Shown: positions 9,464 through 46,900 of the stretch, one piece after another
Layout: every line of letters starts with the position of its first letter
How positions within the stretch are numbered: position 1 is the stretch's first letter
Source of the DNA: Candidatus Jorgensenbacteria bacterium GW2011_GWA1_48_11
GTDB lineage: Bacteria; Patescibacteriota; Minisyncoccia; UBA6257; GWB1-50-10
Length of the DNA: 64,000 nt
NCBI GenBank assembly: GCA_001003475.1
Contig: LCPF01000001.1
Span: 37,910-101,909 of the forward strand
Direction: 5' to 3'
The notes under the pieces: model-generated
Told to the model about the DNA's origin: nothing
The model's database searches: none
What the model saw: only the letters and a program-made list of their open reading frames with translations
Position numbers and translations under genes: made by a program

Positions 9464-10570
9464 TTATTTTCTCTCAAGTTCCTCAAGCGGAGGATAGGTT
9501 TTTTGTTGGCCTGCGATAAGCTTCGGCACCTCTTTGCCCTCTCCAAGCGCTAGTAATCCCCTGAGTCGTAAATCAATAACTCCGACGTCCATGTACATAT
9601 CCTTATAGGATTTGTAACGTTTTTTCCACGCCTGGTGATGCGCATGAATTTCGGATTTCAAATCTCCAGCAAGCGTTAACAGCTGATGAGCTACGCCGTT
9701 AACTTTGTCGCCATACTCATTTCCTGCCAGATATTTGTAGACTTCGTTTACGGCCCTCATTTTCTCGGCATTGGATAACTTCAGTAGTGCGATCCGCACC
9801 AAGCTTTGCCGCAAAACATATGTGACTGGCTCAACATTTACGGGGCTGATGACAAATACCGTGTTGGAAACGAAATAAGACTGCCTCTTAGCCGGAAAAG
9901 CATTGGTAACGAGAACCGCGAAGTTAGCTTGCCTGAATTCGCGCGCGTCAGCGGCCTGCTGGACATGGTTCTGGCTGAAAGACTTAACCTTTTTGCATTC
10001 GTAAACGATCTTACCGACAGGCTTATCCTGCTCCATAACGGTTTGAATAATATCCCCGCCCTTCCCCGGATGGTCGAAGTGGTCGTGCGGAAATAATTCC
10101 TTAAGTTTTGCTAGAAGCTTGTCTTCTTCGAGTAAGCCTTCAATCTGTGGCGTAATTCCTTTTTCCATTTGCTCTCTCAGGCGTTTTATTTCTTGATCGC
10201 CCTTCTCTTTTTTCTCCAAAGCGATTTTCAAGCTTCGCTCCAATTGCCCCATTTTATTCTTAGTCTGGGCAACGCCTTTCGCGGTTTGCGTTTCCAATTT
10301 CTTCTTAAACGTTTCCTGGTCTAGTTTCCGCTGTTCACGGAAGTTGGCGGCAAGTTTGTGTTTTTCTTCTGCTACGGCGCGCTTTGCGGCACGCTGCAAT
10401 TCAGCCTTCTCTTTTTTCCATAATTCGGCTTTGCGCTTTAATTCTTTTCGCTCCTCTTCGAGGTGTTTAATCTCTTCATGTTTCGCTTTCCAAATACCGA
10501 GGGCTTTATCATATTCCTCCTGAGTCAACGGCTTACCGCATACGGGGCATTTTTTTGTTTGGTTTTCCAT
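9464..10570 (-). CDS. DUF2130-like protein: N-terminal CPxCG zinc-knuckle, long coiled coil, C-terminal PD-(D/E)xK-like domain
   Basis: KCPVCGKPL at the N-terminus; about 130 aa of K/E-rich heptad-like sequence; C-terminal GGDIIQ...(18 aa)...YECKKV fits a D...E-x-K nuclease motif. Confidence 0.5.
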   Translation of the reverse strand: MENQTKKCPVCGKPLTQEEYDKALGIWKAKHEEIKHLEEERKELKRKAELWKKEKAELQRAAKRAVAEEKHKLAANFREQRKLDQETFKKKLETQTAKGVAQTKNKMGQLERSLKIALEKKEKGDQEIKRLREQMEKGITPQIEGLLEEDKLLAKLKELFPHDHFDHPGKGGDIIQTVMEQDKPVGKIVYECKKVKSFSQNHVQQAADAREFRQANFAVLVTNAFPAKRQSYFVSNTVFVISPVNVEPVTYVLRQSLVRIALLKLSNAEKMRAVNEVYKYLAGNEYGDKVNGVAHQLLTLAGDLKSEIHAHHQAWKKRYKSYKDMYMDVGVIDLRLRGLLALGEGKEVPKLIAGQQKTYPPLEELERK

Positions 10571-10583
10571 AGATATAGTTGGA

Positions 10584-11393
10584 TTACGCCGTGTCTATTT
10601 CTTTGGCGACTTTCTCGATTAAAGATTTCAATGAAACCCGGTCAAGCGTAATTATTTTTTTTGTCCCATAAATAAGGTTGAGCTCTTTCATTAAATCCCT
10701 AATTTTCTCTCTAGATTGTGCAAATTTCTTGTTCCCCCCGAGGTATTCAAGGACGGTAATAAGTATTCGGTCAGACCGCCCCATGGCGCGTTCAAGAACC
10801 TGCTGATAGATATCCTGCATTGAAAGGAGGATGCGGGTGAAATAGTATGGGTCCTTCTTTTTCAAATCGCCGAAGAAACCCGGATCGCGCTCCCACGGCG
10901 CGTAAGTGAGATGGGCGGCCCACCAGAGCCGCGCGATGGCGTGCCTGCGCAAGTCCCGGTCGTTCCCCCTTACAAACCAGTGCTCTAAAAGCTGGTTGAT
11001 GGCGCGCTGCTTGGCGTCGTCTGTTTTGAGGTCTTTGTATTCTCCGGGCAGGCCCCATCGTACAAGTGAGTACTTGCGGAATTCGACGTGGCTTAGGTAT
11101 GCCCAAAGCCTCGGATCGGAAGCCTGAGTTTCGTCTATGGCGCCGTAAAACTCATGGAGAGCTATGGCATTTTCTAGGTCTGTAGCGACCGGGTCCCTCT
11201 TTAGAGCTTTCAAGAATGGGGATTTACCTTGAACGGGGATTGTCGAAAGGAGTAGGTCCTTGTCTTTCACAGGATAGGAATGTTGGAAATAAGTCTTAAG
11301 AGAACTGCCGGAGCGCAGATCGGCCCTCATTTGCTCGATGACCGCCCGCTTGAAGATTTTTTGGTATTGGGTTTTATTCATACTCTCGTTCAT
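10584..11393 (-). CDS. hypothetical protein (island gene C, 269 aa, Trp-rich)
   Basis: Complete ORF that overlaps by 20 nt the 3' end of the upstream ORF 11374..12222 (gene B), which suggests translational coupling; no recognisable domain; conserved-looking WAYLSHVEF...RLWWAAHLTY segment. Confidence 0.55.
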   Translation of the reverse strand: MNESMNKTQYQKIFKRAVIEQMRADLRSGSSLKTYFQHSYPVKDKDLLLSTIPVQGKSPFLKALKRDPVATDLENAIALHEFYGAIDETQASDPRLWAYLSHVEFRKYSLVRWGLPGEYKDLKTDDAKQRAINQLLEHWFVRGNDRDLRRHAIARLWWAAHLTYAPWERDPGFFGDLKKKDPYYFTRILLSMQDIYQQVLERAMGRSDRILITVLEYLGGNKKFAQSREKIRDLMKELNLIYGTKKIITLDRVSLKSLIEKVAKEIDTA

Positions 11394-12222
11394 CGTTGGT
11401 CTCGAGCAACGACCCTATGCTTTGGAATCCCCGTGAGACGGGGTTGTCGAGAATTTTCTGCGCAACATCAAACGGGTCCTTGTCCCTAAGGCCCTTACCG
11501 TCAAGGATGGCCTCCAAACGGCCGAACCAGCTCATGTCCGCGTAGTCGCCGTTCCCGTTCTGTACTTGGTGCACCGCATCGATCAAGACTGGGAAGACTA
11601 TGGAAGCGTGCAACATCCCCTCTGCGAGCTTCTGGCCCCTGACATCCATGTAACTCTGCCAATCGGTTTTTGAAAGGATGACGGTAATTTTCTCGCCTTC
11701 ATAGTCGATCTGCATTGGCCCTTCGTGATGGCTGCCCACTACTATCGACATGAAAGACGAGACCGGTGGCCGGAGAGGATCGAAATTCTTCTCGGCTATG
11801 AACGAAGTGTACCCTCCGACTGCGAGGACATCACCCGCTTCTACGTCGAAAGATGCTCCTTCGTAATCTGGATGGCATTCGCTCGGCTGGTAGCCGGGGA
11901 TGTCCTTGTCGGCGCACACGTAGAAGCCAACCGCCACTCTTTCGCGGACCAGTTTCGACGGAATCATGAACCTGTCGATTGTTTTCCTCGTAGAATAGCT
12001 TGACCGGAAGAAAGTGCTTTGGCATTCGACTTCAGTCACGAATGACGCCTTTCCGTCCCGGATCAGCTCCTCGATCTTCGCGTTCTTCAAATTAAATATC
12101 GGGTTCAGCGTAATCTCGTCTTTTTTTAGTTCATAATGGAAGGGAGCGACGCGGAAAAAACCGCCGAGGTCGTCTTCGTTGCCAAGCACCGGATGCGGGT
12201 ATGATTTTGAATTAACCCTCAT
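11374..12222 (-). CDS. hypothetical protein (island gene B, 282 aa)
   Basis: Complete ORF that overlaps by 11 nt the 3' end of the upstream ORF 12212..13324 (gene A); no recognisable domain; possible metal-binding SHHEG patch. Confidence 0.55.
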   Translation of the reverse strand: MRVNSKSYPHPVLGNEDDLGGFFRVAPFHYELKKDEITLNPIFNLKNAKIEELIRDGKASFVTEVECQSTFFRSSYSTRKTIDRFMIPSKLVRERVAVGFYVCADKDIPGYQPSECHPDYEGASFDVEAGDVLAVGGYTSFIAEKNFDPLRPPVSSFMSIVVGSHHEGPMQIDYEGEKITVILSKTDWQSYMDVRGQKLAEGMLHASIVFPVLIDAVHQVQNGNGDYADMSWFGRLEAILDGKGLRDKDPFDVAQKILDNPVSRGFQSIGSLLETNDEREYE

Positions 12223-13324
12223 AGCTTTCTATGCCTAAGGCATATTTTTTCCTCGACTCGAGCCTCACGGCAAGGCGGATGGTCTGCCCGTTCTTAATGG
12301 AAAGGCCCTTGATCATAGATCCATCTGTTTCATATTTCGCCTTGGAGTCGATGTCCGTCGCTGATTTTATTTCGGCTGGATAGCTGTTGTCGTCGCCGAC
12401 CGCCACCAGCCTTATCCCTCCTTCGCACTCCTCGCGGCCCGTGATTGCGAAATGGTATTCGGGGCCTTCTTTCGTTTTCTGGATGAAGCTCCGGAAGGAT
12501 ATTGCGGAGGTTTTTATCCTGACGCCTTCTTCCCCTCCCGCTTCCGGCCCGGTCGGCCTTCCATGCGGCCCTTTGCCTGGGCCTTTGGGTGGCGTGCGCT
12601 TCACCCCTCCCGGCTCCTTGTTCGTAACTATGCTTTTCCGGATGACTTTTTCCACGTCCGCAGGGGATTCTTCTTTATTCGCGCCGACTTCGCGCCCGCT
12701 TTCCTGGGTTCCTTCCAGGTCGGTCGGATCGAACGCGGCCCCTTGCTGCGGAAGGTAGTCCCTGTCTTCATTGTCTGGCAGGTACTTATCCAACCCCGGG
12801 ATGTCCTGAGGTTCAGTAGTAACGGTCCCTCCCATGCTTTTCAACGATTCCTTTATGAAATCGTCCAGCTCGTGCATGGCCGCCCATCCGTTCTTGGCCC
12901 GGTCCCTGTCCCATTTATCGTGGGCGGGCGGCTCCATGTCTCGGAGAAGCCTGTTGCCGCGCTCGTCGTCACAGATGAAGACTCCGGCGTAAGGCTCCCT
13001 CAGCACGCGGGATGCTTTTTCCGTAACGAGCATTTTCGGCTTCCGGACCATCATGACTTTGCTGGGGTAATTTTCCTGCTTGCGCACGAAAAGCAGGACC
13101 TTCCCGAGGTGCTTCAACTCCTGTTCGAATTTCTGCTCCCAGTTCGTGGCCGCTTCGTAGAAGAATTTCGCGTCCTCCGCATCGAATTCGCTGAACTTCT
13201 CCGGTAGGTTGTCCTTCGTTATGCGGATTTCAGAGCCGTCCTTGACCACTACTTCAAGGTCGCCGTGAAGGATGGCAAGCCAAAAATTTTGAACGCACGC
13301 ATAGAAAGAAACTACCGCATTCAT
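12212..13324 (-). CDS. hypothetical protein (island gene A, 370 aa, with central Gly/Pro/Glu-rich disordered linker)
   Basis: First gene of the island operon. Globular N- and C-terminal parts are separated by a low-complexity segment KEPGGVKRTPPKGPGKGPHGRPTGPEAGGEEG. No recognisable domain. Confidence 0.55.
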   Translation of the reverse strand: MNAVVSFYACVQNFWLAILHGDLEVVVKDGSEIRITKDNLPEKFSEFDAEDAKFFYEAATNWEQKFEQELKHLGKVLLFVRKQENYPSKVMMVRKPKMLVTEKASRVLREPYAGVFICDDERGNRLLRDMEPPAHDKWDRDRAKNGWAAMHELDDFIKESLKSMGGTVTTEPQDIPGLDKYLPDNEDRDYLPQQGAAFDPTDLEGTQESGREVGANKEESPADVEKVIRKSIVTNKEPGGVKRTPPKGPGKGPHGRPTGPEAGGEEGVRIKTSAISFRSFIQKTKEGPEYHFAITGREECEGGIRLVAVGDDNSYPAEIKSATDIDSKAKYETDGSMIKGLSIKNGQTIRLAVRLESRKKYALGIESYEG

Positions 13325-35771: not shown

Positions 35772-36965
35772 TTAAAGAGTTTTGGGGAGGAAATTATTCT
35801 CGATAATTTTTGCCAAACGTTCGGCAATCAGCCGATAACTTTCGGGTACGTAATGAACGCCATCCACGTAAGCCGTGTTTTTGAAATCTTTGAACAAGCA
35901 AGACAAATCGCTGATTTTTACATTTTGAGAATCCGGAATGTCGGCCATCAACTTGCCGACCCGCGGCCAATATTCCTTAACTTGATCGATCCAATTCGTT
36001 TTCTCCACCGCCCTAAAATATTCCAAAACGCTGTTTTCGTAACTTGATAAATTATCTTTGCAATAGCCAAGGGTCGGCTGGAAAACAAACAACCCTTTGA
36101 TGTTTTTATTGTCCAAAATTTCTTTTTCTATTTTCAGATTATTGAGATAAAGATCTATCGCGGCTTCTTTGATTCGGGCGTTTTCGGGATAAACCTTGAA
36201 ATCGTGCCTCCGAAAAGCAACCCGGAATAAATCGGTCAAAAACGCGCTCTTCTTTATCAACACCTTGGCGTCGTAAGCAAGAAGCGACCTCAGCGACGGA
36301 TAGTTCACGAAAGAATCCAATATCCTTTGATTAGCGAAATAATCGCCGTTCTTCCTGCCCTTCCAGTCCGGCAGGATCGAATAATAAAGATCGTTGCGCC
36401 CATCGAATATTATCACCAGGTCCGGTTCCAAATCCGAAATTTCGGTCTCGAGAAGCGCCAATTCCTGCTGCGAAAAATAACCGACGACGCCGGCATTGAT
36501 AACCTCGGCCGAAGGAATGATTTTTTTCAATTCCTCTTCAAGATAAGAAGAAATCATCCATTTCTCGTTAAACCCGCCCTCGACGGTCGAGCCGCCCAAA
36601 ATAAAGACCCTGAAATCGCCTTTTGGTTTGGGCACGATCATCTCTTTCGAGCGAAAACCGAAAGAATTAGTCGTGTAATCGATGTTTTTCGTCTTAAAAC
36701 CAAAATTGGGCTTCAGCGCCGTTACGGTATACGGAGAGTAGATCGCGCCGGTGCCATAGAAAAAGCTTTGTGCGTCGCCGAGTTTTTTTACGTAATCCAG
36801 AAAGCCCCGAAGATCTCCGAATCCTTCCGCCGAATCTGGGGCCGACGGAAGTTCGCGGAAAATTGCGCTTCTACGAATTCTGAAACCGAACTCAAGCAAT
36901 CCGAGGAGTAAAAGAAAGATTATAAGGCTGATAGCCGCTTTCTTTAAAACTTCGTCTTTCATCAT
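35772..36965 (-). CDS. membrane-anchored SGNH-hydrolase-like protein (variant block I GGST)
   Basis: N-terminal TM helix; FRVFILGGSTVEGG resembles SGNH block I but lacks the GDS serine context. Confidence 0.45.
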   Translation of the reverse strand: MMKDEVLKKAAISLIIFLLLLGLLEFGFRIRRSAIFRELPSAPDSAEGFGDLRGFLDYVKKLGDAQSFFYGTGAIYSPYTVTALKPNFGFKTKNIDYTTNSFGFRSKEMIVPKPKGDFRVFILGGSTVEGGFNEKWMISSYLEEELKKIIPSAEVINAGVVGYFSQQELALLETEISDLEPDLVIIFDGRNDLYYSILPDWKGRKNGDYFANQRILDSFVNYPSLRSLLAYDAKVLIKKSAFLTDLFRVAFRRHDFKVYPENARIKEAAIDLYLNNLKIEKEILDNKNIKGLFVFQPTLGYCKDNLSSYENSVLEYFRAVEKTNWIDQVKEYWPRVGKLMADIPDSQNVKISDLSCLFKDFKNTAYVDGVHYVPESYRLIAERLAKIIENNFLPKTL

Positions 36966-38755
36966 TCTTTTTTGTTTTTATAAACGACGAAATCTTTTAA
37001 TACCAGGATGTCCAATTCGCTCCGCTCGAAAGTCGAATAAGCATCGGCTGGCGTATTCACGATCGGTTCGCCCTTAAGATTGAAGGACGTATTTAAAATC
37101 AGCGGTACCCCGGTGATGTCGGAAAATTTCTTTATTAACCCGTAATAGCGGGGGGAATGCTCCCTGAAAACCGTCTGCGGCCGGGCGGTGCCGTCGACGT
37201 GGGTAATGGCCGGGATGATTTCCTGCTTGTCCTTCAATACGTCCACGACGTAAAGCATGAATCGGGCCGGATAATATTTTTTTGGTTCCGGCAAATCAAA
37301 AAACTTATCCGCTTCTTCGACTAAAACCGAGGGCGCGAAAGGACGATAGGGTTCGCGGAATTTTATCTTGGTATTGACGACGTCCTTCATTTCCGATCGA
37401 CGGGGATCGCCCAGAATCGATCGACTGCCGAGCGCCCGCGGCCCCCATTCGAATTTGCCGTCAAACCAGCCTATCACCTTGCCGTTCGCTATTTCCCTGG
37501 CGATCAAGTCGAATAACGCCTCTTCGTTCTTAAAATATTGGTGTTCTATTTTATTTGAATCTAAAAATGATTTTATGTCGTTTTCGGAATATTCTGCCCC
37601 GTAATAAGCGTGCTCCATTTTGTAACTGCGCTCATTGCCCAAAGCCTGATTCCAGACGAGCAGGGCGGCCCCCAGGGCGCCGCCGGCGTCGCCGGCGGCC
37701 GGCTGGATAAAAATCTCGTCGAAGCCGGCGTTCTTCAGTATTTTCCCGTTCGCGACGGAGTTCAGAGCGACGCCTCCCGCAAAACAAAGCTTGGACAAGC
37801 CGGTGATCCGCCTGGCTTCTTTCGCCAAAAGAATCACGGCTTCCTCCAAAACGGCCTGAACCGAGGCGGCGATATCGGCATAATGTTCCTGTTCCAACGC
37901 GATCCTCTCAAACTCCTTGCCTTGCGGCTTTTCCCCGAAATAAGACGGCCAACCCGTTTCCCGCGTAAAAAATTTCGACTTGGGGTCGCGCGGCGGGCCG
38001 AACAATTCGATGAATTTTCCGGAATAAGTCCGGCTTAAGGATCGGTGAAAAGAGAAATAACTGAGATCGAGATCGTAAGAACCGTCAGGGAAAAATCTTA
38101 TCGTTCTGCGCACCAAATCGGCGTACTTGGGCTTGCCGTACGGCGCCATTCCCATAACCTTGTATTCGCCGTCATTAACCTCAAACCCCAAAAAGGCCGT
38201 AAAAGCGGAATAAAGAAGGCCCAAAGAATGGGGGAAATGGATTTCCTTTAGAATCTTGACCTTCTTCCCGTCCCCGACGCCGATTGTCGTAACCGCCCAC
38301 TCGCCTACCCCGTCAATCGTCAGGATCGCCGCTTGGTCGTAAGGAGACGGCAAAAAAGCCGAAGCGGCATGGGACAAGTGGTGTTCCACGAAAAGGACCT
38401 TGCCCGGATCAATCCCGAGCCGACTGCTTATAATCTGCCGAATCCATATTTTTTTCAGAAAAAGGCTCTTGATCGACGCGACAAAAACGTGAGGCGCAAT
38501 CGGAAAAGTCGCCAAATCCGTTTTCATGATTCTATCAAGCTTGATAAAGGGTTTCTCGTAGAAAACGACATAATCAACGTCCTTAGCGCTTATTCCTCCT
38601 TTTTTAAGGACAAAATTGATCGCCAATTCCGGAAAATCCGAATCGTGTTTTTTTCTTGAAAAACGCTCCTCTTCGGACATTGCTACCGGGACCCCGTTCA
38701 TAAGAAGCGCCGCCGCTGCGTCGTGATAAAAAAAGGAAAGGCCGAGGATATTCAT
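36962..38755 (-). CDS. carbamoyltransferase (NodU/CmcH family)
   Basis: MNILGLSFFYHDAAAALLMNGVPVAMSEEERFSRKKHDSDFP is the hallmark N-terminus of NodU/CmcH/TobZ-type O-carbamoyltransferases; 597 aa. Confidence 0.85.
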   Translation of the reverse strand: MNILGLSFFYHDAAAALLMNGVPVAMSEEERFSRKKHDSDFPELAINFVLKKGGISAKDVDYVVFYEKPFIKLDRIMKTDLATFPIAPHVFVASIKSLFLKKIWIRQIISSRLGIDPGKVLFVEHHLSHAASAFLPSPYDQAAILTIDGVGEWAVTTIGVGDGKKVKILKEIHFPHSLGLLYSAFTAFLGFEVNDGEYKVMGMAPYGKPKYADLVRRTIRFFPDGSYDLDLSYFSFHRSLSRTYSGKFIELFGPPRDPKSKFFTRETGWPSYFGEKPQGKEFERIALEQEHYADIAASVQAVLEEAVILLAKEARRITGLSKLCFAGGVALNSVANGKILKNAGFDEIFIQPAAGDAGGALGAALLVWNQALGNERSYKMEHAYYGAEYSENDIKSFLDSNKIEHQYFKNEEALFDLIAREIANGKVIGWFDGKFEWGPRALGSRSILGDPRRSEMKDVVNTKIKFREPYRPFAPSVLVEEADKFFDLPEPKKYYPARFMLYVVDVLKDKQEIIPAITHVDGTARPQTVFREHSPRYYGLIKKFSDITGVPLILNTSFNLKGEPIVNTPADAYSTFERSELDILVLKDFVVYKNKKE

Positions 38756-38771
38756 AGAAATTTTTTAGCTC

Positions 38772-38996
38772 TTACTCATCTCTGAAATCTTCCATTCCCG
38801 GAAAAACATCTTTCCTTAAGAACCAATTCGAATGTTCGCTTTTTCGCCGCAGGACCTTAACAAAAATCCTAAAGGGAATGGCGAAAAGAGAAAAAATAAG
38901 AAAATAAAAGATCGTAAGAAAAATGCCACTCATGACATTTCCCATAAACAAACCCGTCTTCATCCAGCCGTCCCGGACTTTCTTTAAAAATTTCAT
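38772..38996 (-). CDS. small membrane protein (possibly SxtJ-like)
   Basis: I chose the start at MKFLKK (38996), not the track's 39110, to avoid a 100-nt overlap with the upstream DUF5989-like gene. Two TM helices. Position between the DUF5989-like gene and the carbamoyltransferase. Confidence 0.35.
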   Translation of the reverse strand: MKFLKKVRDGWMKTGLFMGNVMSGIFLTIFYFLIFSLFAIPFRIFVKVLRRKSEHSNWFLRKDVFPGMEDFRDE

Positions 38997-39007
38997 ACAG
39001 CCGATTA

Positions 39008-39199
39008 TTAAAAAAGCGTGTAGATGAACGGACCCAGCGGGGAGCTTTGAGCGAATATTATCAAAATAAAAAAGGCCGCCAGGACAAAAACCATCGGTAT
39101 CAACCACCACATTTTATTCCGCCAAAGGAAACCGAACAATCTGCCCAAAATCCCGAATCGTATTCTTGCAGAAGCGAAGAGTAATTTGATTTTTTCCAT
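39008..39199 (-). CDS. DUF5989-family small membrane protein (SxtK-like)
   Basis: 63 aa, basic N-terminus, single TM, C-terminal ...SPLGPFIYTLF matching the characteristic PFIYTLF ending of this family. Adjacent to a carbamoyltransferase, as usually seen. Confidence 0.55.
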   Translation of the reverse strand: MEKIKLLFASARIRFGILGRLFGFLWRNKMWWLIPMVFVLAAFFILIIFAQSSPLGPFIYTLF

Positions 39200-39301: not shown

Positions 39302-40267
39302 TCAGCGCGGAGGATTCTGGTTGAAAAAGGCGTTGATTCGATCAGCGACAAATCGCTTGCCTTGCGCGGTCAAATGCTCGTTGGGATACGCCGGATAATC
39401 GAAGTAATCGCGGGTTAGAGAGAGCGTCAAATCCAAGCACGGCATTTTTTTATCTTCCAGAACCGAACAAACCAAATTGGCGTTATACGCGACCTGTTCC
39501 ACGAAATCGTTCCCGATGAACTTTGTTCCCGTCTCATAATCTATCGGGGAAATATAGACGTATATTTTTGTGCCGGCCTTATCCGCCAAGTCCAGCAAGG
39601 ATTCCAAAGATTTCATTTTCCTTTGATTTCGATCAAGCTTGAACATGTATTTATAGACATAATCGTCCCTGATATTTTCTTCGGTGGCGGGCTTGTTCTT
39701 ATCCACCGCTTCGAAATCTTCCACGATTCCCGCTTGTTTTTGACCGTAATAAACGGGGGTTTTTAAAAACTCGGTGTAGGAAACCGAATTAACGTCAATC
39801 GCCCTTAATATGGCTAGGGGCGTATAAAAATAAGAGATGAAAGAGGTGCGATCCTTCAGTAAAAATATTTCCTTCTCGAATTGATTCACCGGGCGCATGT
39901 CCCATTCGGGAGAGAAAGATCTGAGTTGTACGGGAAAGATGATCGCTTGCGGCTTCGAGGGGGCGCGGGAAATATAATCCAATACGGCCTCATAAATACC
40001 CAAATGATAAGCCGGGTGAGCCAAATTGCCCAGCTTATAAGCGGGGTTGGCCGCTTGGAACATCTCAATGATGGACGATTGGTTGTCGGAACTGCCGCCG
40101 GTGGGCAAAACCGAGCTGTCTCCGAAGAAAAGAATTTGTGTCCGATCTCTCAAATAGCCGTTCAAGGAGGAAACCAGCGGGTCGGGTTCGATATAGCGCG
40201 CAATAACCACCTGAGCCGCCAGGACAAGCGCGACAAAAGCAATTAATTTCAAAAAGAAAGATTTCAT
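39302..40267 (-). CDS. secreted SGNH/AlgJ-DltD-like protein (partner of MBOAT)
   Basis: Signal/anchor sequence; ILFFGDSSV block-I-like motif; lies immediately downstream of the MBOAT gene (10-nt gap). Confidence 0.45.
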   Translation of the reverse strand: MKSFFLKLIAFVALVLAAQVVIARYIEPDPLVSSLNGYLRDRTQILFFGDSSVLPTGGSSDNQSSIIEMFQAANPAYKLGNLAHPAYHLGIYEAVLDYISRAPSKPQAIIFPVQLRSFSPEWDMRPVNQFEKEIFLLKDRTSFISYFYTPLAILRAIDVNSVSYTEFLKTPVYYGQKQAGIVEDFEAVDKNKPATEENIRDDYVYKYMFKLDRNQRKMKSLESLLDLADKAGTKIYVYISPIDYETGTKFIGNDFVEQVAYNANLVCSVLEDKKMPCLDLTLSLTRDYFDYPAYPNEHLTAQGKRFVADRINAFFNQNPPR

Positions 40268-40276
40268 TCGTATTGA

Positions 40277-41818
40277 TCAGAACTGGAAATAAATAAAGGG
40301 TATTTCGTGGGTGACGCCTAAATTCATTATCGCCAAAACCGCGCTGAAATATAGAACCGCGCGGACCCAACGGTATTTGACGGAAAAGAGATTCAAGGTT
40401 TTCGAATAGCTCACTGCCTCGGCTAAGACAAAGAACAAAACCAAAAAGATCAAGAATAAAAATTGCCGCCGGCCTTCACCGTCAAGCAAAAATTGATTCA
40501 GGAAACCAAAAAGCGCAGGCGTTGTCGCCTGATTAAGGGAGGTTGTGACCCCGACGAAACGCCCAAAGAAACCGATTAAACCGTTAAAAGAATGGATTAA
40601 AATATAGCCGGCGTCGCCGAGAGTAGCCGCCCGAAAAAAAACAAAACCGATGCAAGCCAGAGAAAACGTCAGGAGCGTCTGCCAAAAATGATACAATCTT
40701 GGAAATTTAAGGAAACCAACTTTCCGCACGATCCATTGACGCGACTTTTGGGTTATCTGGCCAAAAACCATGTAGAAACCATGGAGGGCGCCGAAGGCAA
40801 CAAAGGTCCAATCAGCGCCGTGCCATAAACCTATCAAGACCATTGTGATAAAAAGCGCAAGATAAAGCCGCGTCCGGACGTGCGCTTTTATCGAAAAGAC
40901 CAAGGGGTAATACAAATAATCGCGCAGCCAATTGGAGAGAGACATGTGCCAGCGCCGCCAATATTCCGCCATTGATCGCGATAAATAAGGGTAATTGAAA
41001 TTCTCTATCAGCTTGATTCCCAATACCTGCGCCCCGCCGATCGCAATATCAGAATAGCCGGAAAAGTCGCAATATAACTGGATGGCAAAGAAAAACGTGG
41101 CCGTGAGAAGAATGAGTCCGGAATAACCCTGGGGATAAAGATACGCTTGATCCACGTAAGCCGCCAAATTGTCGGCAATGACTATTTTTTTGAAAAATCC
41201 CCACAGCATCCGCTCCAGTCCCGCTTTAAGGTTTTGCAGACCGAATTTTTGTTCCTGTTTGAGCTGCGGCAAGAGATTATAAGGACGCTCGATCGGGCCA
41301 GCCACCAATTGGGGGAAAAACATGACGTACAAAGCGTAAGTCAATAAATTATTTTCGGCCCGGTATTTTCCCCGGTAAACCTCGATTACGTAACTCAAGC
41401 TCTGAAAGACATGAAAAGACAAACCAAGCGGCAATACGATTGAAAGGATCGGAAGCGAATAATTCCAGTGGATGAGCCTAGCTAAAGCGCCAACGTTATC
41501 GCTGAAAAAATTGAAATATTTGAAAACAAAAAGTGTTCCCAGGTTCGCCAAAATGCTCACAAAAAGGAGAATTTTTCTCTTTTCTCCTTGATTTTTTTCT
41601 ATCTGCTTAGCCAGGAAAAAATCGGTGGCGATCAGGAAAAAAAGGATGAGGATGTACTTTGGCACGAAGGCCATGTAAAAATAGCTGCTCGCAATTAAAA
41701 GAATCAAACTGCGCCACTTATGTGGCGCTAAATAATAAATCGCAACGACAATCGGAAAAAACAAAAGAAAGGAGAAGGAATTGAAAAGCATTTCAGTTAG
41801 TTTCCGATTCCGGAGCAA
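40277..41818 (-). CDS. MBOAT-family membrane-bound O-acyltransferase (AlgI/DltB-like)
   Basis: About 10 TM helices with the conserved MBOAT histidine region (AEYWRRWHMSLSNWLRDYLYYPL). Confidence 0.85.
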   Translation of the reverse strand: MLRNRKLTEMLFNSFSFLLFFPIVVAIYYLAPHKWRSLILLIASSYFYMAFVPKYILILFFLIATDFFLAKQIEKNQGEKRKILLFVSILANLGTLFVFKYFNFFSDNVGALARLIHWNYSLPILSIVLPLGLSFHVFQSLSYVIEVYRGKYRAENNLLTYALYVMFFPQLVAGPIERPYNLLPQLKQEQKFGLQNLKAGLERMLWGFFKKIVIADNLAAYVDQAYLYPQGYSGLILLTATFFFAIQLYCDFSGYSDIAIGGAQVLGIKLIENFNYPYLSRSMAEYWRRWHMSLSNWLRDYLYYPLVFSIKAHVRTRLYLALFITMVLIGLWHGADWTFVAFGALHGFYMVFGQITQKSRQWIVRKVGFLKFPRLYHFWQTLLTFSLACIGFVFFRAATLGDAGYILIHSFNGLIGFFGRFVGVTTSLNQATTPALFGFLNQFLLDGEGRRQFLFLIFLVLFFVLAEAVSYSKTLNLFSVKYRWVRAVLYFSAVLAIMNLGVTHEIPFIYFQF

Positions 41819-42557
41819 TAAGGAAAGTCAGGTTGGTAAGTGAGCGCGATTCCGGGGAACAAAGAAAAGAAATCATCGCCGCTACGTCGGCTGCTTGAGC
41901 GAGGGTTTTGGTCGGGCTTTTTTCCCGGAACATATCCAAAAACGCCTGCGGCGTGGCGCTGTTCATACCTCCCGGCAGGACGCCGGGCGCCACCGAATAA
42001 ACGCGCACACCCAACGGCGCGAGCTCCTCCCTAAAAGCGGCCAAAATGCCCTGAAGCGCGAATTTGGCAGGGCTGTAAGCACCGCGGGCCCGCGTATTAA
42101 CTTGGGTAATTACGGCGGCGGTGGTAATTCCGATTATAACCCCTTCTTTTTGCTCTTTTATCCTTTTAGCGCACGCCGCCAGAAAATTAAAACTACCAAA
42201 GACATTAAGGCCAAATTGCTCCTTCAGTTCTTCCGAAGAAGAGAGATGAAGTTGTTTTGGTTTCGGCGCCGTCCCGGCTGCATGGATGCAAACACGAATC
42301 GCCCCTTGTTCCTTTTCGATGGTACGGATAGTCTCTTCCACGCGAGCGGGGTCTTCCAAATCGCACGAATACGAACGATGTCCGGCACCGGCAAGGCCGG
42401 CGATAAGTCCAACAGCAGTTTCATTCGAGCCGTTCTCACGATAAAGAGCGGCTATTTTTAGACCGTCCGCCGCCAATTTTTCGGTGATCGCGGAACCGAC
42501 ATAGCCCGTCGCGCCGGAAATGACGACTACCCTTGATTTATTTGATTGCTTGTTCAT
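41793..42557 (-). CDS. SDR-family oxidoreductase (FabG-like)
   Basis: TGxxxGxG (ISGATGYVGSA) and a YxxxK catalytic motif; 254 aa. Confidence 0.75.
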   Translation of the reverse strand: MNKQSNKSRVVVISGATGYVGSAITEKLAADGLKIAALYRENGSNETAVGLIAGLAGAGHRSYSCDLEDPARVEETIRTIEKEQGAIRVCIHAAGTAPKPKQLHLSSSEELKEQFGLNVFGSFNFLAACAKRIKEQKEGVIIGITTAAVITQVNTRARGAYSPAKFALQGILAAFREELAPLGVRVYSVAPGVLPGGMNSATPQAFLDMFREKSPTKTLAQAADVAAMISFLCSPESRSLTNLTFLIAPESETN

Positions 42558-42584
42558 GAGAATCGTTCAAAATAATCATATTTT

Positions 42585-43007
42585 TTAAGAAAGGATTTGA
42601 ACCGTTGCCGTTCCCTCGACCGCATTCCTCCCATCTTTAATTATAGAAATAAAAATATCGACGAGGCCGATCGCAAGGCTCTTGCTCTTGACCTCGCCGC
42701 GAATGACGACCTTGTCGCCGATGAAGACCGGCTCTTTAAAATCCAGTGTTTGCCGGACATACAGGCAACGCTTGCCGGGCAGATACATACCGACCAGGGT
42801 AGAGCAAGCTGAACCGACGAGCATGCCGTGGACCAGCCGGCGGCCGAATTTCGTCTTTCGGGCATATTCCTCGTCAAGATGAAGCGGGTTCTTGTCCCCG
42901 GTAAGGGAGGCGAACGCCAGGACATCCTCATTGGTCCAAATCCGGTCGAAAGACGCCGTATCGCCGACGGAAATATCATTGATTGAAAGGTCTCGCGGTT
43001 CCGTCAT
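42585..43007 (-). CDS. MaoC-like (R)-specific dehydratase, hot-dog fold
   Basis: LTGDKNPLHLDEEYARKTKFGRRLVHGML matches the MaoC dehydratase motif. Confidence 0.8.
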   Translation of the reverse strand: MTEPRDLSINDISVGDTASFDRIWTNEDVLAFASLTGDKNPLHLDEEYARKTKFGRRLVHGMLVGSACSTLVGMYLPGKRCLYVRQTLDFKEPVFIGDKVVIRGEVKSKSLAIGLVDIFISIIKDGRNAVEGTATVQILS

Positions 43008-43234
43008 GATTTTTTACCTCTTTCCTCCACTACTTTCCTTAGATCGCCCAGAACCTCGGCGGTTATCACCTCCTGCATCGTAAAAGACAGGCCGAAATTC
43101 TTCTCGAGCTCGGAAATAAAAAGAAGATAGTTCATTGAATCCCATTCCGGAATATCCCTGGAAGACATATCGTCCCGGATCTTGTCCTGGCTAATTTTGA
43201 ATATCTCCCCGACGATCTCATTAAATGTCCTCAT
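43004..43234 (-). CDS. acyl carrier protein
   Basis: 76 aa from MRTFNEIV..., with the phosphopantetheine-attachment motif EWDSMNYL. The track's longer 155-aa version overlaps the upstream gene and is unlikely. Confidence 0.7.
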   Translation of the reverse strand: MRTFNEIVGEIFKISQDKIRDDMSSRDIPEWDSMNYLLFISELEKNFGLSFTMQEVITAEVLGDLRKVVEERGKKS

Positions 43235-44280
43235 TTTTTTATGCTCATCCACGAAGGGACATTGGGCTTTTTGGACAGATCGTATTCTTCCCGGACAAAA
43301 TATTTTTCTATAAAATCCTTCGCTGGCTTGTTCTTTTCGGTCTCTTTGAAAACAATCGAAAGCTTTTTGGCGTTTTCCGACAGGGCTTCTCCGGCAATGA
43401 AGCCCAAAAACGCCTCCTCCGCTCCCCGACCGAGGGCCCGGCAACTCATTAAAAGCGATTCCACCTTCCAAGCCTCCTGATTTCGTTCAACTAAAGCGAG
43501 GGCAATTATTCCGTAGTCGCCGAATTTATCCCGCAATCCTCCGTGAAAAACAATATGTTTCGGACTCAAAATATATTTTTTTATTTCTTCCTCGCTTAAC
43601 GGATTTTTATTGGTGTTAAATTGGTTGGTTTTCCCGGTAAGCTGAGCCAACCGCGCAACGGCAGAATCGTCATCTTTATAAACGGATAATTCAAGGGAAA
43701 GATTCCGAAGAAAGTCTTCTTTCAATTGATAGCTGTTTTCTTCTTCTTTCCTTAAACGTTCCGTGACATACAGATTGCCCCTCATCTTGTCTTCTTCGGT
43801 AAAGGCCTCCGCCGGAAAATAATCCAGTGAATTCAGGAAATTCGTGAGTTGAGACGGGTCGGTGGGCAGATCGGGCGCCTCCACCTCCGGCAGAAGAGCA
43901 CGGACCATTTCCCGGTTCATCGGATCGTCGTCCAAAAATACCATGGAATCAAGACCGATATTCAATTCTTCGGCGAGCTCTCTTAAATTCTGGACCTTAT
44001 CGTTCCAATTCATTCGAACGGCCGCAAAATTATCTTCCCTTAAAATCATATTCGGATGCGTCCGAATCGCCCTCCAGGCGTCTTCCGGATTGTTCCGACT
44101 GTTGATCGCGAGGATCACGCCACGGTTATAATGATCGAGCAAGGCCTGCTGAAACGCCACAAAACCGCTCCCCGGCGGCGTCAAAGAAAGAGCGATATTC
44201 TCCATGCCTTCTTCGCCAATAACGCCTCCCCAAAGGGTGTTGTCCAGATCTAAAACAATGCACTTTTTGTTTGTCTTCAT
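43231..44280 (-). CDS. HAD-superfamily subfamily IIIC / FkbH-like protein
   Basis: HAD motif I DLDNTLWGG at the N-terminus and 349 aa; overlaps the ACP start by 4 nt, which is the FkbH-ACP pairing seen in glyceryl-ACP pathways. Confidence 0.65.
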   Translation of the reverse strand: MKTNKKCIVLDLDNTLWGGVIGEEGMENIALSLTPPGSGFVAFQQALLDHYNRGVILAINSRNNPEDAWRAIRTHPNMILREDNFAAVRMNWNDKVQNLRELAEELNIGLDSMVFLDDDPMNREMVRALLPEVEAPDLPTDPSQLTNFLNSLDYFPAEAFTEEDKMRGNLYVTERLRKEEENSYQLKEDFLRNLSLELSVYKDDDSAVARLAQLTGKTNQFNTNKNPLSEEEIKKYILSPKHIVFHGGLRDKFGDYGIIALALVERNQEAWKVESLLMSCRALGRGAEEAFLGFIAGEALSENAKKLSIVFKETEKNKPAKDFIEKYFVREEYDLSKKPNVPSWMSIKK

Positions 44281-44621
44281 TTTTTTATTGCAATGGCCGC
44301 AGCTATTTTGTTCGTGTGGCTTATCGACAACAAAATCGAACGCTGAAGCCGATTATTTATCCAGACTGTCGGTTGACCGTTTTTCTTTCTCACGATTTCT
44401 ACCGAGGAGAAAAGAAAATCTTTTTGCCCCAGCGTCTTGAAAACCGCCTCCTTGGCCGCGAAAGTCCCCGCCAAATGCGGCGCGGCGTCCCGGAAAGAAA
44501 AACAATAATCAAGCTCTCTTTTGGTGTAGCTGCCCGAGAGAAACGGGCTTTTTTGGCCCTTTTTGAAAGAATCGAATCTTCTGATTTCTAAAATGTCTAG
44601 ACCCAATCCCCTCAAGCGCAT
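44277..44621 (-). CDS. acpS: holo-ACP synthase-type 4'-phosphopantetheinyl transferase
   Basis: GLDILEIRRF (GxDxxE) and FAAKEAVFK motifs; about 114 aa from MRLRGLG. The track's 208-aa version extends upstream in-frame across the next gene and is unlikely. Confidence 0.6.
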   Translation of the reverse strand: MRLRGLGLDILEIRRFDSFKKGQKSPFLSGSYTKRELDYCFSFRDAAPHLAGTFAAKEAVFKTLGQKDFLFSSVEIVRKKNGQPTVWINNRLQRSILLSISHTNKIAAAIAIKK

Positions 44622-44683
44622 TTCGTGATTATTATCACTCAAGTCCCGGGCCTTGGCAACATATTGACGCCCATAGTTATCTT

Positions 44684-45787
44684 TTATTTGATCTTTTCCG
44701 CCAAAAAATCCATGACCGCCCTGGCCATCACTCGGTGGCCAGCCGGCGAAAAATGATAATCGTAGTAATAGAATAATTTTTTCCGCGGGTCTTTCGTTTT
44801 TTCCGCAAGAAATGATTCGTAGGAATCTCCGAACCAGATGCCCCGGCTTTTCAAAAAATCGTAAACATAATCGCGATAAGACCGGCCCCCGTTGCCGGCA
44901 CATTCTTTCTTGATGGCGGCATCCAGATTCAAAGTGTTAATTTGAAATTTATAAATGGGCTCGTTGTCAAAAATATGCATATAATTGACGAGGTAAACAC
45001 CGATTTCCGCCCCGGCATCATTGACCATTTTCTTTATGCCGTCTATGTAATGTCCCGTTTTTTTCTGGAACCAATCATCGGCGTATTCGTCACGGGAACA
45101 CAGAAACTTGACCCAATCGGGACTGGCCTGTCCTTTCAAATATTCCGGCCAAAGGACGTTGTGCAGTCGGGGGAATTCGCGGCCGGCTAAAACGTCCAAA
45201 TAGCGAAGGGCCCAAAATTTTTGCAGAAGCCAAAGTTTGGATTGGCTTTTGGGTCTTAGGGGCAGGTTTTGATTGTCGAAAACAAAGCCGAATTGGTCCT
45301 CAAAATTAAAATCGTCGGCCAAATCGTTGGGGGACAAGAATAAAATAACCACATCCGGTTTCAACGCCGGCAGGTATTTCCTAAGCTGCAAAATGTATTG
45401 CGCCGGCGAACCATTCTGGATCGCGCCATTTATAATCCGCCAGCCACTCTGGCCCGCCGCATTTAACGACTGCTGAACAAGGCTGTAAAAACGCTCGTCA
45501 TTCGAAACGCCGTCAGCCTCGACGAAGGAATCCCCCAAGAACAATATCCTTTTCTCCCCGGTTTTTTTCTCGCCAACGTCATCTTTCATCCTGAAACCGA
45601 TATTGTTCGTATAATCTTCCCCGATATCAAACTGTTCGGCGGGCAATTCAGCCGGCAGTTTTTTTAAAACCTCAAGCGTATCGTGGGCGTAGATCGTCCT
45701 TTTGACGTTCGGCCGGAGCGATCTTATGAGATCCGGATCGGGCTGAAAAGCGATATCTTGTTTGTAAAGCCTGACGCCCATCTCCAC
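44684..45787 (-). CDS. SGNH/GDSL hydrolase-family protein
   Basis: ILFLGDSFVEADG is SGNH block I (GDSx); soluble. Confidence 0.55.
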   Translation of the reverse strand: MEMGVRLYKQDIAFQPDPDLIRSLRPNVKRTIYAHDTLEVLKKLPAELPAEQFDIGEDYTNNIGFRMKDDVGEKKTGEKRILFLGDSFVEADGVSNDERFYSLVQQSLNAAGQSGWRIINGAIQNGSPAQYILQLRKYLPALKPDVVILFLSPNDLADDFNFEDQFGFVFDNQNLPLRPKSQSKLWLLQKFWALRYLDVLAGREFPRLHNVLWPEYLKGQASPDWVKFLCSRDEYADDWFQKKTGHYIDGIKKMVNDAGAEIGVYLVNYMHIFDNEPIYKFQINTLNLDAAIKKECAGNGGRSYRDYVYDFLKSRGIWFGDSYESFLAEKTKDPRKKLFYYYDYHFSPAGHRVMARAVMDFLAEKIK

Positions 45788-45847
45788 TAAAAAGAAAGAA
45801 AAACGCCCAAAACGACCAATCCGGTTTTTTTCAGAAATTCTTTCATT

Positions 45848-46900
45848 TCAGTCGTTTAACAAATCGACGATCCCGCTCTTCGCGGCCAGGGCGTGACCGA
45901 AAACGTTCCAATGGCCCTCGTGGGGAAAGTAATATTTTTCCGAATCATTCAATATTTGGGGAGTCAAATCCACGAAAGGAATTTTTTCTTCCCGTAAAAT
46001 GTCGCCGATTTTCGAACCGAGCTCTTTCTCCAGATAGTTATGCTTGATATTCATCGAGGGAACGACCAAAACGACCAATTTTTTGCCGGCCAGCTTCTTA
46101 ACGGTTTCTTTCAAAATCAACCTGATGACCTCGAAGTTCTTTTCATAATCATTCGGATTTTTCACCAACCCCCCTTTTTCCAAAATGGGATAAAATTGGT
46201 CCTTAACCAGATTTTTGACGAGGTCAAAAGACTTCAATTTTAAAATCCAGGACAGGGAGTCATAAAATAATCTGTTCTTAATGCGGGTGTCAACGTTCTC
46301 GAGCCGGGCCTTTTCGTCGGGCGGAGGCACGTTTTTCACGGCAAGTTTGCCGTCTTCGATATCGAAATAAGGCTTGTATCTGTCGCCTTGATAGGGGTGG
46401 TCCAGGACAACATCCTCAATGTCATTGCCAAGATACAGGGCGTAAACGACAACGTCCGGGTCGTATTTCAAGGCCTGGTTTTGAAGAAGGAGCAGGTACT
46501 GGCCGGGGTCGTAACCGGAGACGCCGAAATCCATGACCTCGTCGTTCGTCTCGGTTTCGATCAATTTCGAGAAGGCTTGATCAAGCGGGACGCCGACGCC
46601 AAAAACGAACGAATCGCCCAGGACGGCGATCCTTTTCTTCGTCTTGATACGCAGGAAATCCGCATCACTCCTAAATCCCTGAGCGTTCGTTTTATAGACA
46701 ACATTAAAATCTCGGCTTGCCTGCTTTACGGAAACATTCGGCAGCATCGACCAGCCCAAAAGGTCATCGTAACGATAAAGGCTACCGCTTATTTCCTCCA
46801 CATAAGGTTTTTCGACCAAGGTGTCGGAAATTCGCAAAATAGCCTCCACCATGGCCAGGCTCAAAATCAAGCCGAGCAGAATCAAAAATATCTTTTTCAT
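45848..46900 (-). CDS. SGNH/GDSL hydrolase-family protein, membrane-anchored
   Basis: N-terminal TM; IAVLGDSFVFGVG is SGNH block I; paralogous to 44684..45787. Confidence 0.55.
   Translation of the reverse strand: MKKIFLILLGLILSLAMVEAILRISDTLVEKPYVEEISGSLYRYDDLLGWSMLPNVSVKQASRDFNVVYKTNAQGFRSDADFLRIKTKKRIAVLGDSFVFGVGVPLDQAFSKLIETETNDEVMDFGVSGYDPGQYLLLLQNQALKYDPDVVVYALYLGNDIEDVVLDHPYQGDRYKPYFDIEDGKLAVKNVPPPDEKARLENVDTRIKNRLFYDSLSWILKLKSFDLVKNLVKDQFYPILEKGGLVKNPNDYEKNFEVIRLILKETVKKLAGKKLVVLVVPSMNIKHNYLEKELGSKIGDILREEKIPFVDLTPQILNDSEKYYFPHEGHWNVFGHALAAKSGIVDLLND

Follow-up and report, generated by a model that had tools for sequence, protein, structure and literature searches.

Among the bacterial systems that pair an MBOAT (membrane-bound O-acyltransferase) with an SGNH-family partner, only the Dlt pathway of D-alanylation uses a carrier protein, from which DltB takes the acyl group; all the others use acyl-coenzyme A (acyl-CoA) (PMC12148441). 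The acyl-tyrosine shuttle motif of these systems, FxYxxF, is fused to MBOATs of the PatA/AlgI type and is found on a separate microprotein, DltX, in Dlt (PMC12148441). The present analysis concerns a 64,000-nucleotide stretch of contig LCPF01000001.1 from Candidatus Jorgensenbacteria bacterium GW2011_GWA1_48_11, referred to throughout as the window, in which an MBOAT gene and the gene of its SGNH/DltD-fold partner lie at the end of a seven-gene cassette. The five genes that precede them, here called the donor module, encode an AcpS-type 4'-phosphopantetheinyl transferase (PPTase), an FkbH-domain protein, a stand-alone acyl carrier protein (ACP), a MaoC-type dehydratase and a FabG-like short-chain dehydrogenase/reductase (SDR). 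The cassette probably makes a three-carbon (C3) acyl donor on its own ACP, which the MBOAT and its SGNH partner would deliver to a polymer of the cell envelope.

The cassette core is a seven-gene operon that runs from 44648 down to 39302 on the minus strand (Table 1). The PPTase and FkbH genes overlap by 4 nt, the FkbH and ACP genes by 13 nt and the ACP and MaoC genes by 4 nt, while the probable ATG of the MBOAT lies 2 nt past the SDR stop codon and a gap of 9 nt separates the MBOAT from its partner. The PPTase reading frame could be extended back to 44903, but the extension overlaps the upstream gene. A first-pass annotation of the window had placed all of these genes on the minus strand, with the FkbH stop codon overlapping the start of the ACP gene. 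The open reading frames (ORFs), together with searches of the window proteins against Pfam and NCBIfam/TIGR models, recover every gene that it named, all between 39302 and 46900. It had also pointed to the lack of an adenylating enzyme, and neither the cassette nor the scanned ORFs of the window yielded an AMP-binding protein.

The seven genes were also sought in other genomes, with a positive outcome. Nine related cassette loci were read (L001, L004, L081, L161/L162, L163, L165, L167, L168 and L169). Their hosts are uncultured bacteria, and those with a taxon label are all Patescibacteria. Six close homologues of FkbH (60-68% identity) were placed on their contigs; in all six, the gene after the block PPTase-FkbH-ACP-MaoC-SDR-MBOAT encodes an anchored protein of 317-372 amino acids (aa), and L001 and L004 carry the same block order. 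The PPTase opens the cassette in L001, L004, L161, L163, L165 and L167-L169; L081, where the contig begins at the ACP, continues as ACP-MaoC-SDR-MBOAT. Both in the window and in seven of the nine related loci, the SDR gene stands immediately before the MBOAT, with junctions that overlap or span at most 24 nt, and in L168 the MBOAT-partner pair is inverted and still adjacent. The cassette MBOATs form one clade, every member of which is cassette-linked, in a neighbour-joining tree of 98 MBOATs.

What surrounds the block differs in each locus and is plainly non-glycan in L161, L163 and L165, where the flanks are housekeeping genes (prenyltransferase/dihydrofolate reductase, NUDIX/peptidase M3 and UvrC/Ddl) and the MBOAT is the sole acyltransferase near the acyl-ACP genes. 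The cassette moves independently of glycan loci. Since it is found outside them, its acceptor may be a general envelope polymer and need not be a glycan encoded nearby. On this point the first proposal, decoration of the surface glycan, is corrected; in the window itself, the cassette lies inside a glycan locus.

A similar association appears when the survey is anchored on FkbH. In a scan of 80 species-level genomes, the FkbH gene had an ACP as neighbour in 71 loci, MaoC in 26-35, an SDR in 22, a PPTase in 18 and an MBOAT in 12. All 12 MBOATs share the strand of the FkbH-ACP pair and lie no more than 3.6 kb from it, in varied gene orders. With background rates of 1-5%, the binomial probability of 12 in 80 ranges from 3e-11 to 6e-4. 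The FkbH-ACP pair adjoins an MBOAT in ten other lineages of bacteria and archaea, with hosts that include Micrarchaeota (DPANN), the thaumarchaeal Nitrosopelagicus, Ignavibacteriaceae, Leptospiraceae, Sphingomonas, Kiloniella, Acidobacteriaceae and Bacteroidetes. One of these loci belongs to a cultured alphaproteobacterium, Kiloniella spongiae MEBiC09566 (L068:4417-11590), and is arranged as MBOAT, partner, methyltransferase, ACP and FkbH, then a fusion of the MaoC and SDR domains (499 aa). The methyltransferase hints at an O-methylated acyl group. Because the MaoC and SDR domains are fused in Kiloniella, this locus shows that the two enzymes act together.

A sequence of steps can be proposed for the cassette. 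The PPTase would convert the cassette ACP to its holo form. The HAD domain of FkbH would remove the phosphate of 1,3-bisphosphoglycerate, and the glyceryl group would be held on Cys280 of the GNAT-fold domain before it passes to the holo-ACP. The MaoC enzyme would then remove the 3-hydroxyl of glyceryl-ACP to give 2-hydroxyacryloyl-ACP, tautomerising to pyruvoyl-ACP, which the SDR would reduce to lactyl-ACP. At the membrane, the phosphopantetheine arm of the acyl-ACP would enter the cytoplasmic tunnel of the MBOAT, whose invariant histidine would transfer the acyl group to Tyr510 of the FIYFQF motif at the outer face. Finally, the SGNH/DltD-fold partner would take the acyl group on Ser51 and esterify a cell-envelope polymer.

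The loading step is assigned to FkbH. The window protein is identical to one from a Candidatus Jorgensenbacteria genome (Patescibacteria/CPR), a source that the G+C content of the window, about 0.48, fits. It matches TIGR01686 over nearly its whole length, from profile position 2 to 317 of 323, against a cut-off of 146.65 bits. Folds were predicted with AlphaFold2 (AF2) and compared with known structures: in the FkbH model (predicted local distance difference test, pLDDT, of 80), residues 1-160 match BF1531 (3slr), MDP-1 and KdsC, and the C-terminal half matches GNAT acetyltransferases. The catalytic motifs of HAD phosphatases (DxDxT, S/T, K and DD) are all present, and the residues that are invariant in 20 homologues comprise D11, D13 and T15 (DLDNT), S61, K95, D117-D119 (DDD) and C280 in LLMSCR. 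Its location in the GNAT fold and its invariance make Cys280 the candidate acyl-transfer cysteine, and family membership predicts a loader that makes glyceryl-S-ACP from 1,3-bisphosphoglycerate. The acyl-transfer domain expected from the first-pass annotation is thus in place, and a plain phosphatase is ruled out, since the TIGR01686 match is full-length, the C-terminal domain has a GNAT fold and the cysteine is invariant. Most FkbH homologues in glycan loci (L001-L080) are longer (about 590-620 aa) and carry some 240 further residues at the N-terminus, as does Bacteroides fragilis BF1531 (PDB 3slr); the FkbH of the window and its Patescibacteria relatives have a minimal 350-aa form without this extra domain.

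The remaining members of the donor module retain the motifs expected of active enzymes and carriers. In the MaoC protein the hydratase-2 motif F-x2-L-T-G-D-x-N-P-L-H is intact (FASLTGDKNPLH). The SDR carries GxxGxxG and YxxxK, and its top NCBIfam matches are FabG subfamilies, each under its cut-off. The ACP keeps a WDS(M/L)N motif across cassettes, and its closest matches in the PDB are generic ACPs, with no DltC up to E = 1. As for the PPTase, it is present in 16 of the 21 FkbH loci from archaea and the candidate phyla radiation (CPR), versus 2 of the 59 from other bacteria (Fisher p 1e-10), which is the pattern expected if the ACP were a dedicated carrier in organisms without fatty-acid synthesis.

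It might be asked whether these genes are instead left over from fatty-acid or lipid A synthesis. This origin was rejected: the window has neither ketosynthase nor Lpx genes, the FkbH-ACP neighbours in the 80 loci are glycan genes and the PPTase tracks lineages without fatty-acid synthesis. In the FkbH and cassette loci examined, the ACP, PPTase, MaoC and SDR genes were never accompanied by genes of either pathway. They keep company with FkbH and, in the nine closest loci that were read, also with the MBOAT and a partner of SGNH-like character. Neither of the two findings that would have refuted the first-pass proposal, a plain phosphatase or conservation with such a pathway, was thus made.

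With respect to the acyl group, the dehydration and reduction steps are the same as those proposed for the FkbH-dehydratase-ketoreductase (FkbH-DH-KR) loading modules of trans-AT polyketide synthases such as bryostatin BryA and FR901464. On this precedent, lactyl is offered as a tentative assignment. It is somewhat unlikely, though a case can be made, that the relay is correct and the group that it carries is another one, such as glyceryl, pyruvoyl/2-hydroxyacryloyl, 3-hydroxypropionyl or the product of some other FkbH substrate, with MaoC and SDR working in a different order or direction. Such a case would draw on the FkbH-MBOAT loci that have neither MaoC nor SDR (L034, L064, L065 and L076) or have MaoC without SDR (L017, L025 and L078). 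It would also draw on the methyltransferase encoded between FkbH and ACP in L078 and L068, the VOC/glyoxalase genes that accompany FkbH-ACP in 21 loci, and the substrate specificity of this FkbH clade, which is itself a prediction. Against it, FkbH with a dehydratase and a ketoreductase is the very combination proposed for lactyl-ACP loading, and an FkbH loading domain is listed as yielding D-lactate-ACP (PMC7901079). In addition, the cassette is without the FkbI/FkbK-type enzymes of the hydroxymalonyl route, an absence that also rules out hydroxymalonyl- or methoxymalonyl-ACP as its product.

Turning to the membrane components, the MBOAT was first described as being of the AlgI/DltB type, and the AlgI half of that description holds. 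It scores 174.6 bits against the DltB equivalog TIGR04091, which has a cut-off of 375, and its alignment to DltB (6bug) is confined to residues 118-387, with about 115 extra residues at the C-terminus. These extra residues end in PFIYFQF, and FxYxxF is present in every complete FkbH-linked MBOAT. H291 and H333 are invariant, the latter in a W-H-G that aligns with the WHG motif of DltB, and F508, Y510 and F513 are nearly so. By these sequence comparisons the protein belongs to the PatA/AlgI type, and DltB orthology is ruled out by the equivalog score and the architecture.

Its 321-aa partner has no match in Pfam or NCBIfam. Of the 25 homologues that were found, those with a source name are mostly from Patescibacteria. 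The AF2 model (pLDDT 90) has DltD (6pfx, E 3.5e-6) as its top Foldseek match, followed by SGNH esterases and PatB, and the residues G49-D50-S51 and E297-H298 are invariant. The SGNH/DltD fold of the first description is therefore borne out, but the protein has an N-terminal transmembrane helix and is consequently membrane-anchored and not freely secreted. From the modelled fold it is predicted to be the final acyltransferase, at the membrane's outer face. The partner lies directly 3' of the MBOAT in L001, L161 and L163. The 365-aa partners of L165, L167 and L169 were considered as homologues and set aside, since a profile comparison matched the block V region only, with a probability of 4%. 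Judged by sequence, the cassette partners fall into at least three families.

Several observations weigh against an ACP-fed relay, and most come from a second scan that covered 80 metagenomic loci with the closest MBOATs (36-53% identity). An ACP is absent from 78 of these loci, being present only in L081 and L140, and FkbH is found in none of the 80. In most of them the MBOAT is accompanied only by an anchored partner of 300-400 aa, encoded directly 3' of it. Several of the MBOAT-partner pairs sit among housekeeping genes, one of them (L087) with a homologue of the 321-aa partner. Because most of the closest loci are without an ACP, the pair is usually carrier-free; in most organisms it is self-sufficient and presumably uses acyl-CoA. 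The fused FxYxxF is, in addition, a hallmark of the acetyl-CoA-using PatA/AlgI type (PMC12148441). The cassette ACP has no MBOAT-specific features, and a nearly identical ACP occurs in modules coupled to other transferases. Indeed, the FkbH-ACP-MaoC-SDR set is coupled elsewhere to PseB/NeuB, to AAC(3)-type or PglD-type N-acyltransferases (the latter in 19 loci) and to enzymes resembling ketoacyl-ACP synthase III (KAS III; 10 loci). An ACP requirement of the MBOAT subfamily as a whole is ruled out by the same 78 loci.

Some of these loci merit a description of their own. In L003:2270-7043, from Saccharibacteria, PseB-like and NeuB genes come after a PPTase/FkbH/ACP/MaoC/SDR module, while in L013:2097-6634 and L016, from Methanosarcinales and Woesearchaeota, the donor module is followed by genes of AAC(3)-family N-acyltransferases. 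Each of the three is a candidate pathway for making N-lactyl or N-glyceroyl sugars, nonulosonic acids among them. The picture that emerges is modular, with a conserved donor module and interchangeable transferases, of which the MBOAT-SGNH relay is one. In L140:6023-10615, on a metagenome contig, an AMP-binding DltA-like ligase and a carrier protein are encoded with an MBOAT that has a fused FIYFQF and with a 321-aa partner. From gene order alone, this locus suggests that fused-motif MBOATs can be carrier-fed. An 80-aa ORF after its partner resembles the C-terminal part of an MBOAT and may be a DltX-like duplicate.

The observations against an ACP feed could be accommodated if the cassette were two independent modules that happen to be neighbours. 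An acetyl-CoA-dependent MBOAT-SGNH pair of the PatA/PatB or AlgI/AlgJ type would then stand beside FkbH-ACP-MaoC-SDR genes that feed a cytoplasmic acyltransferase or sugar-nucleotide pathway encoded elsewhere. We regard this as unlikely, since the donor genes and the MBOAT stay together in all nine related loci, even where the flanks are non-glycan and no other acyltransferase is present (three loci) or where the pair is inverted (one locus). The close or overlapping SDR-MBOAT junctions and the independent adjacency of FkbH-ACP and MBOAT in ten other lineages count against it as well. Furthermore, no LbH (hexapeptide), GNAT, AT3 or KAS III acyltransferase was detected anywhere in the 64-kb window, which leaves the MBOAT as the only candidate consumer of the acyl-ACP there. 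An ACP feed is also supported by chemistry, in that acyl-CoA and acyl-ACP present the same phosphopantetheine thioester.

On balance, an ACP-fed relay is the reading that we favour. The ACP-dependent acylation first put forward gains from the conservation of the block. As to the hand-off from ACP to MBOAT, it is well motivated but we infer it, because the close MBOATs are mostly ACP-free and the donor module is coupled elsewhere to other acyltransferases. A third proposal, in which the acceptor of the MBOAT is a membrane lipid or an intermediate linked to a lipid, or the product of the cassette is a small ester that is secreted, with the SGNH protein as an esterase, is very improbable: eukaryotic MBOATs do acylate lipids and the cassette does occur outside glycan loci, but the characterised bacterial MBOAT-SGNH pairs all modify an envelope polymer by an acyl-Tyr to Ser relay (PMC12148441) and the top fold match of the partner is a transferase, DltD.

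Table 1. Cassette genes and other features of the window, with the matches on which their assignments are based.
Feature	Coordinates	Strand	Evidence or content
AcpS-type PPTase, ~123 aa	44277..44648	minus	PF01648 E 2.8e-10; TIGR00556 55.5 bits, cut-off 45.35
FkbH-domain protein (HAD-IIIC + C-terminal GNAT-fold domain)	43231..44280	minus	TIGR01686 301 bits; TIGR01681 72.5 bits
Stand-alone ACP, 79 aa, serine in EWDSM	43004..43243	minus	PF00550 (PP-binding) 22 bits, cut-off 20.8
MaoC-type (R)-specific hydratase/dehydratase, hot-dog fold	42585..43007	minus	PF01575 E 4e-19
FabG-like SDR	41793..42557	minus	adh_short_C2 E 1.6e-34; KR E 7.8e-12
MBOAT	40277..41818, probable ATG start 41791	minus	PF03062 E 2.7e-24
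Membrane-anchored SGNH/DltD-fold partner, 321 aa	39302..40267	minus	no Pfam family; AF2 fold
Two SGNH/AlgX-like paralogues 5' of PPTase	44684-45787 and 45848-46900	minus	Lipase_GDSL_2 and ALGX matches
DUF5989 microprotein	39008-39199	minus	
Small membrane ORF	38772-39110	minus	
NodU/CmcH-type carbamoyltransferase	36962-38755	minus	
Anchored SGNH protein	35772-36965	minus	
Large ORF of glycan locus, 436 aa	34461-35771	minus	no Pfam match
Large ORF of glycan locus, 422 aa	58980-60248	minus	no Pfam match
Possible mobile or defence island	9464-13324	minus	DUF2130, DUF6339, two ORFs without family
Wzx/Wzy-type glycan locus	~22.9 to 62.4 kb		

The two further SGNH paralogues named by the first-pass annotation are present 5' of the PPTase (Table 1) but do not belong to the conserved unit. 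No counterpart of either was seen in any related FkbH or cassette locus examined, and the genes 5' of the PPTase in L161-L169 are unrelated to them. Because the related loci hold no homologues, the paralogues are placed outside the unit, as local additions. The longest ORF of the one nearer to the PPTase has no hydrophobic N-terminus, unlike the other SGNH genes of the locus, and its product may be cytoplasmic or mis-started.

The Wzx/Wzy-type glycan locus around the cassette includes genes for a flippase, a priming sugar transferase, an AsnB-like amidotransferase, many glycosyltransferases of families GT2 and GT4, methyltransferases and sugar-nucleotide enzymes, as well as a NodU-type carbamoyltransferase with DUF5989 and a Wzy_C protein. 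No ketosynthase or other polyketide gene is found in the cassette, and no ketosynthase in the window. Directly 3' of the cassette (35772-39199) lie the carbamoyltransferase, the DUF5989 microprotein, a small membrane ORF and an anchored SGNH protein. A carbamoyltransferase also adjoins the FkbH module in L002, and one flanked by SGNH genes follows the MBOAT in L110, which suggests a recurring carbamoyltransferase-SGNH unit. Two large ORFs of the glycan locus are without a Pfam match. Farther away, the stretch with DUF2130 and DUF6339 is associated with lower G+C (about 0.42 at 6-10 kb, against about 0.48 for the window) and could represent a mobile or defence island with no relation to the cassette.

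Literature searches returned no description of an FkbH-MBOAT pathway, and nothing relevant on gellan glyceryl transferase genes or HAD-IIIC. If the proposal is true, the cassette would be the second carrier-protein-fed transmembrane acylation system known, after D-alanylation, and would break the rule that only Dlt uses a carrier (PMC12148441). It would also mean that MBOATs with a fused motif are able to accept groups other than acetyl from a thioester on a protein. In CPR bacteria, whose surfaces are almost unknown, a lactyl or glyceryl ester would be predicted as a new modification of the envelope, and such esters would occur on the envelope polymers of organisms without fatty-acid synthesis. 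In broader terms, the chances seem about even that C3 acyl donors for bacterial and archaeal surface decoration come from FkbH-ACP modules as a widespread source not described before, which would feed an MBOAT-SGNH relay in Patescibacteria and at least ten other lineages. FkbH-ACP genes lie beside glycan genes, with interchangeable acyltransferases, in very many bacterial and archaeal lineages, and they are candidates for the genes that give bacterial sugars their glyceroyl, lactyl and related substituents. Cultured carriers exist in Kiloniella spongiae and Sphingomonas rustica HF-S3 (L064), and the idea is directly testable.

Compared with Dlt, the cassette shares a carrier protein for an acyl thioester, an MBOAT that would move the acyl group across the membrane, the acyl-Tyr shuttle motif and an SGNH/DltD-fold finisher; among solved structures, DltB is the best match of the MBOAT and DltD that of the partner. 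It differs in having an FkbH-domain loader in place of a DltA-type adenylating enzyme, a carrier that is a generic ACP and not DltC-like, and an MBOAT below the DltB equivalog cut-off. Moreover, the shuttle motif is fused to the MBOAT, with no separate DltX-like small ORF between the cassette genes, and a C3 hydroxy acid, not D-alanine, would be transferred. The PatA/PatB, AlgI/AlgJ/AlgX and WssH systems share the fused C-terminal FxYxxF, the invariant catalytic histidine and the anchored SGNH partner directly 3', and the cassette has the structural features of the PatA/PatB type. Those systems, however, use acetyl-CoA and no carrier protein (PMC12148441), whereas the cassette adds a co-inherited PPTase, ACP, loader and two tailoring enzymes.

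A third comparison is with the FkbH glyceryl-ACP synthases and polyketide synthase loading modules (FkbH, OzmB and the tetronate enzymes Tmn16/RkD; BryA and FR901464), in which a full FkbH likewise stands beside its cognate ACP. As in the FkbH-DH-KR modules, a dehydratase and a reductase would turn glyceryl-ACP into lactyl-ACP. Unlike them, the cassette has no ketosynthase, its MaoC and SDR are free-standing, and its product would be used by a membrane acyltransferase in an envelope context. Finally, in Vibrio cholerae O1 the tetronate side chain of the O-antigen (rfbKLMNO) is an ACP-dependent cytoplasmic acyl decoration of sugars. There too, a glycan locus encodes a dedicated ACP together with tailoring enzymes, and these provide a short acyl group of an unusual kind. 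In V. cholerae, however, a soluble acyltransferase attaches the group to the amine of a nucleotide sugar, whereas the cassette described here would form an ester outside the cell by way of a transmembrane MBOAT-SGNH relay.

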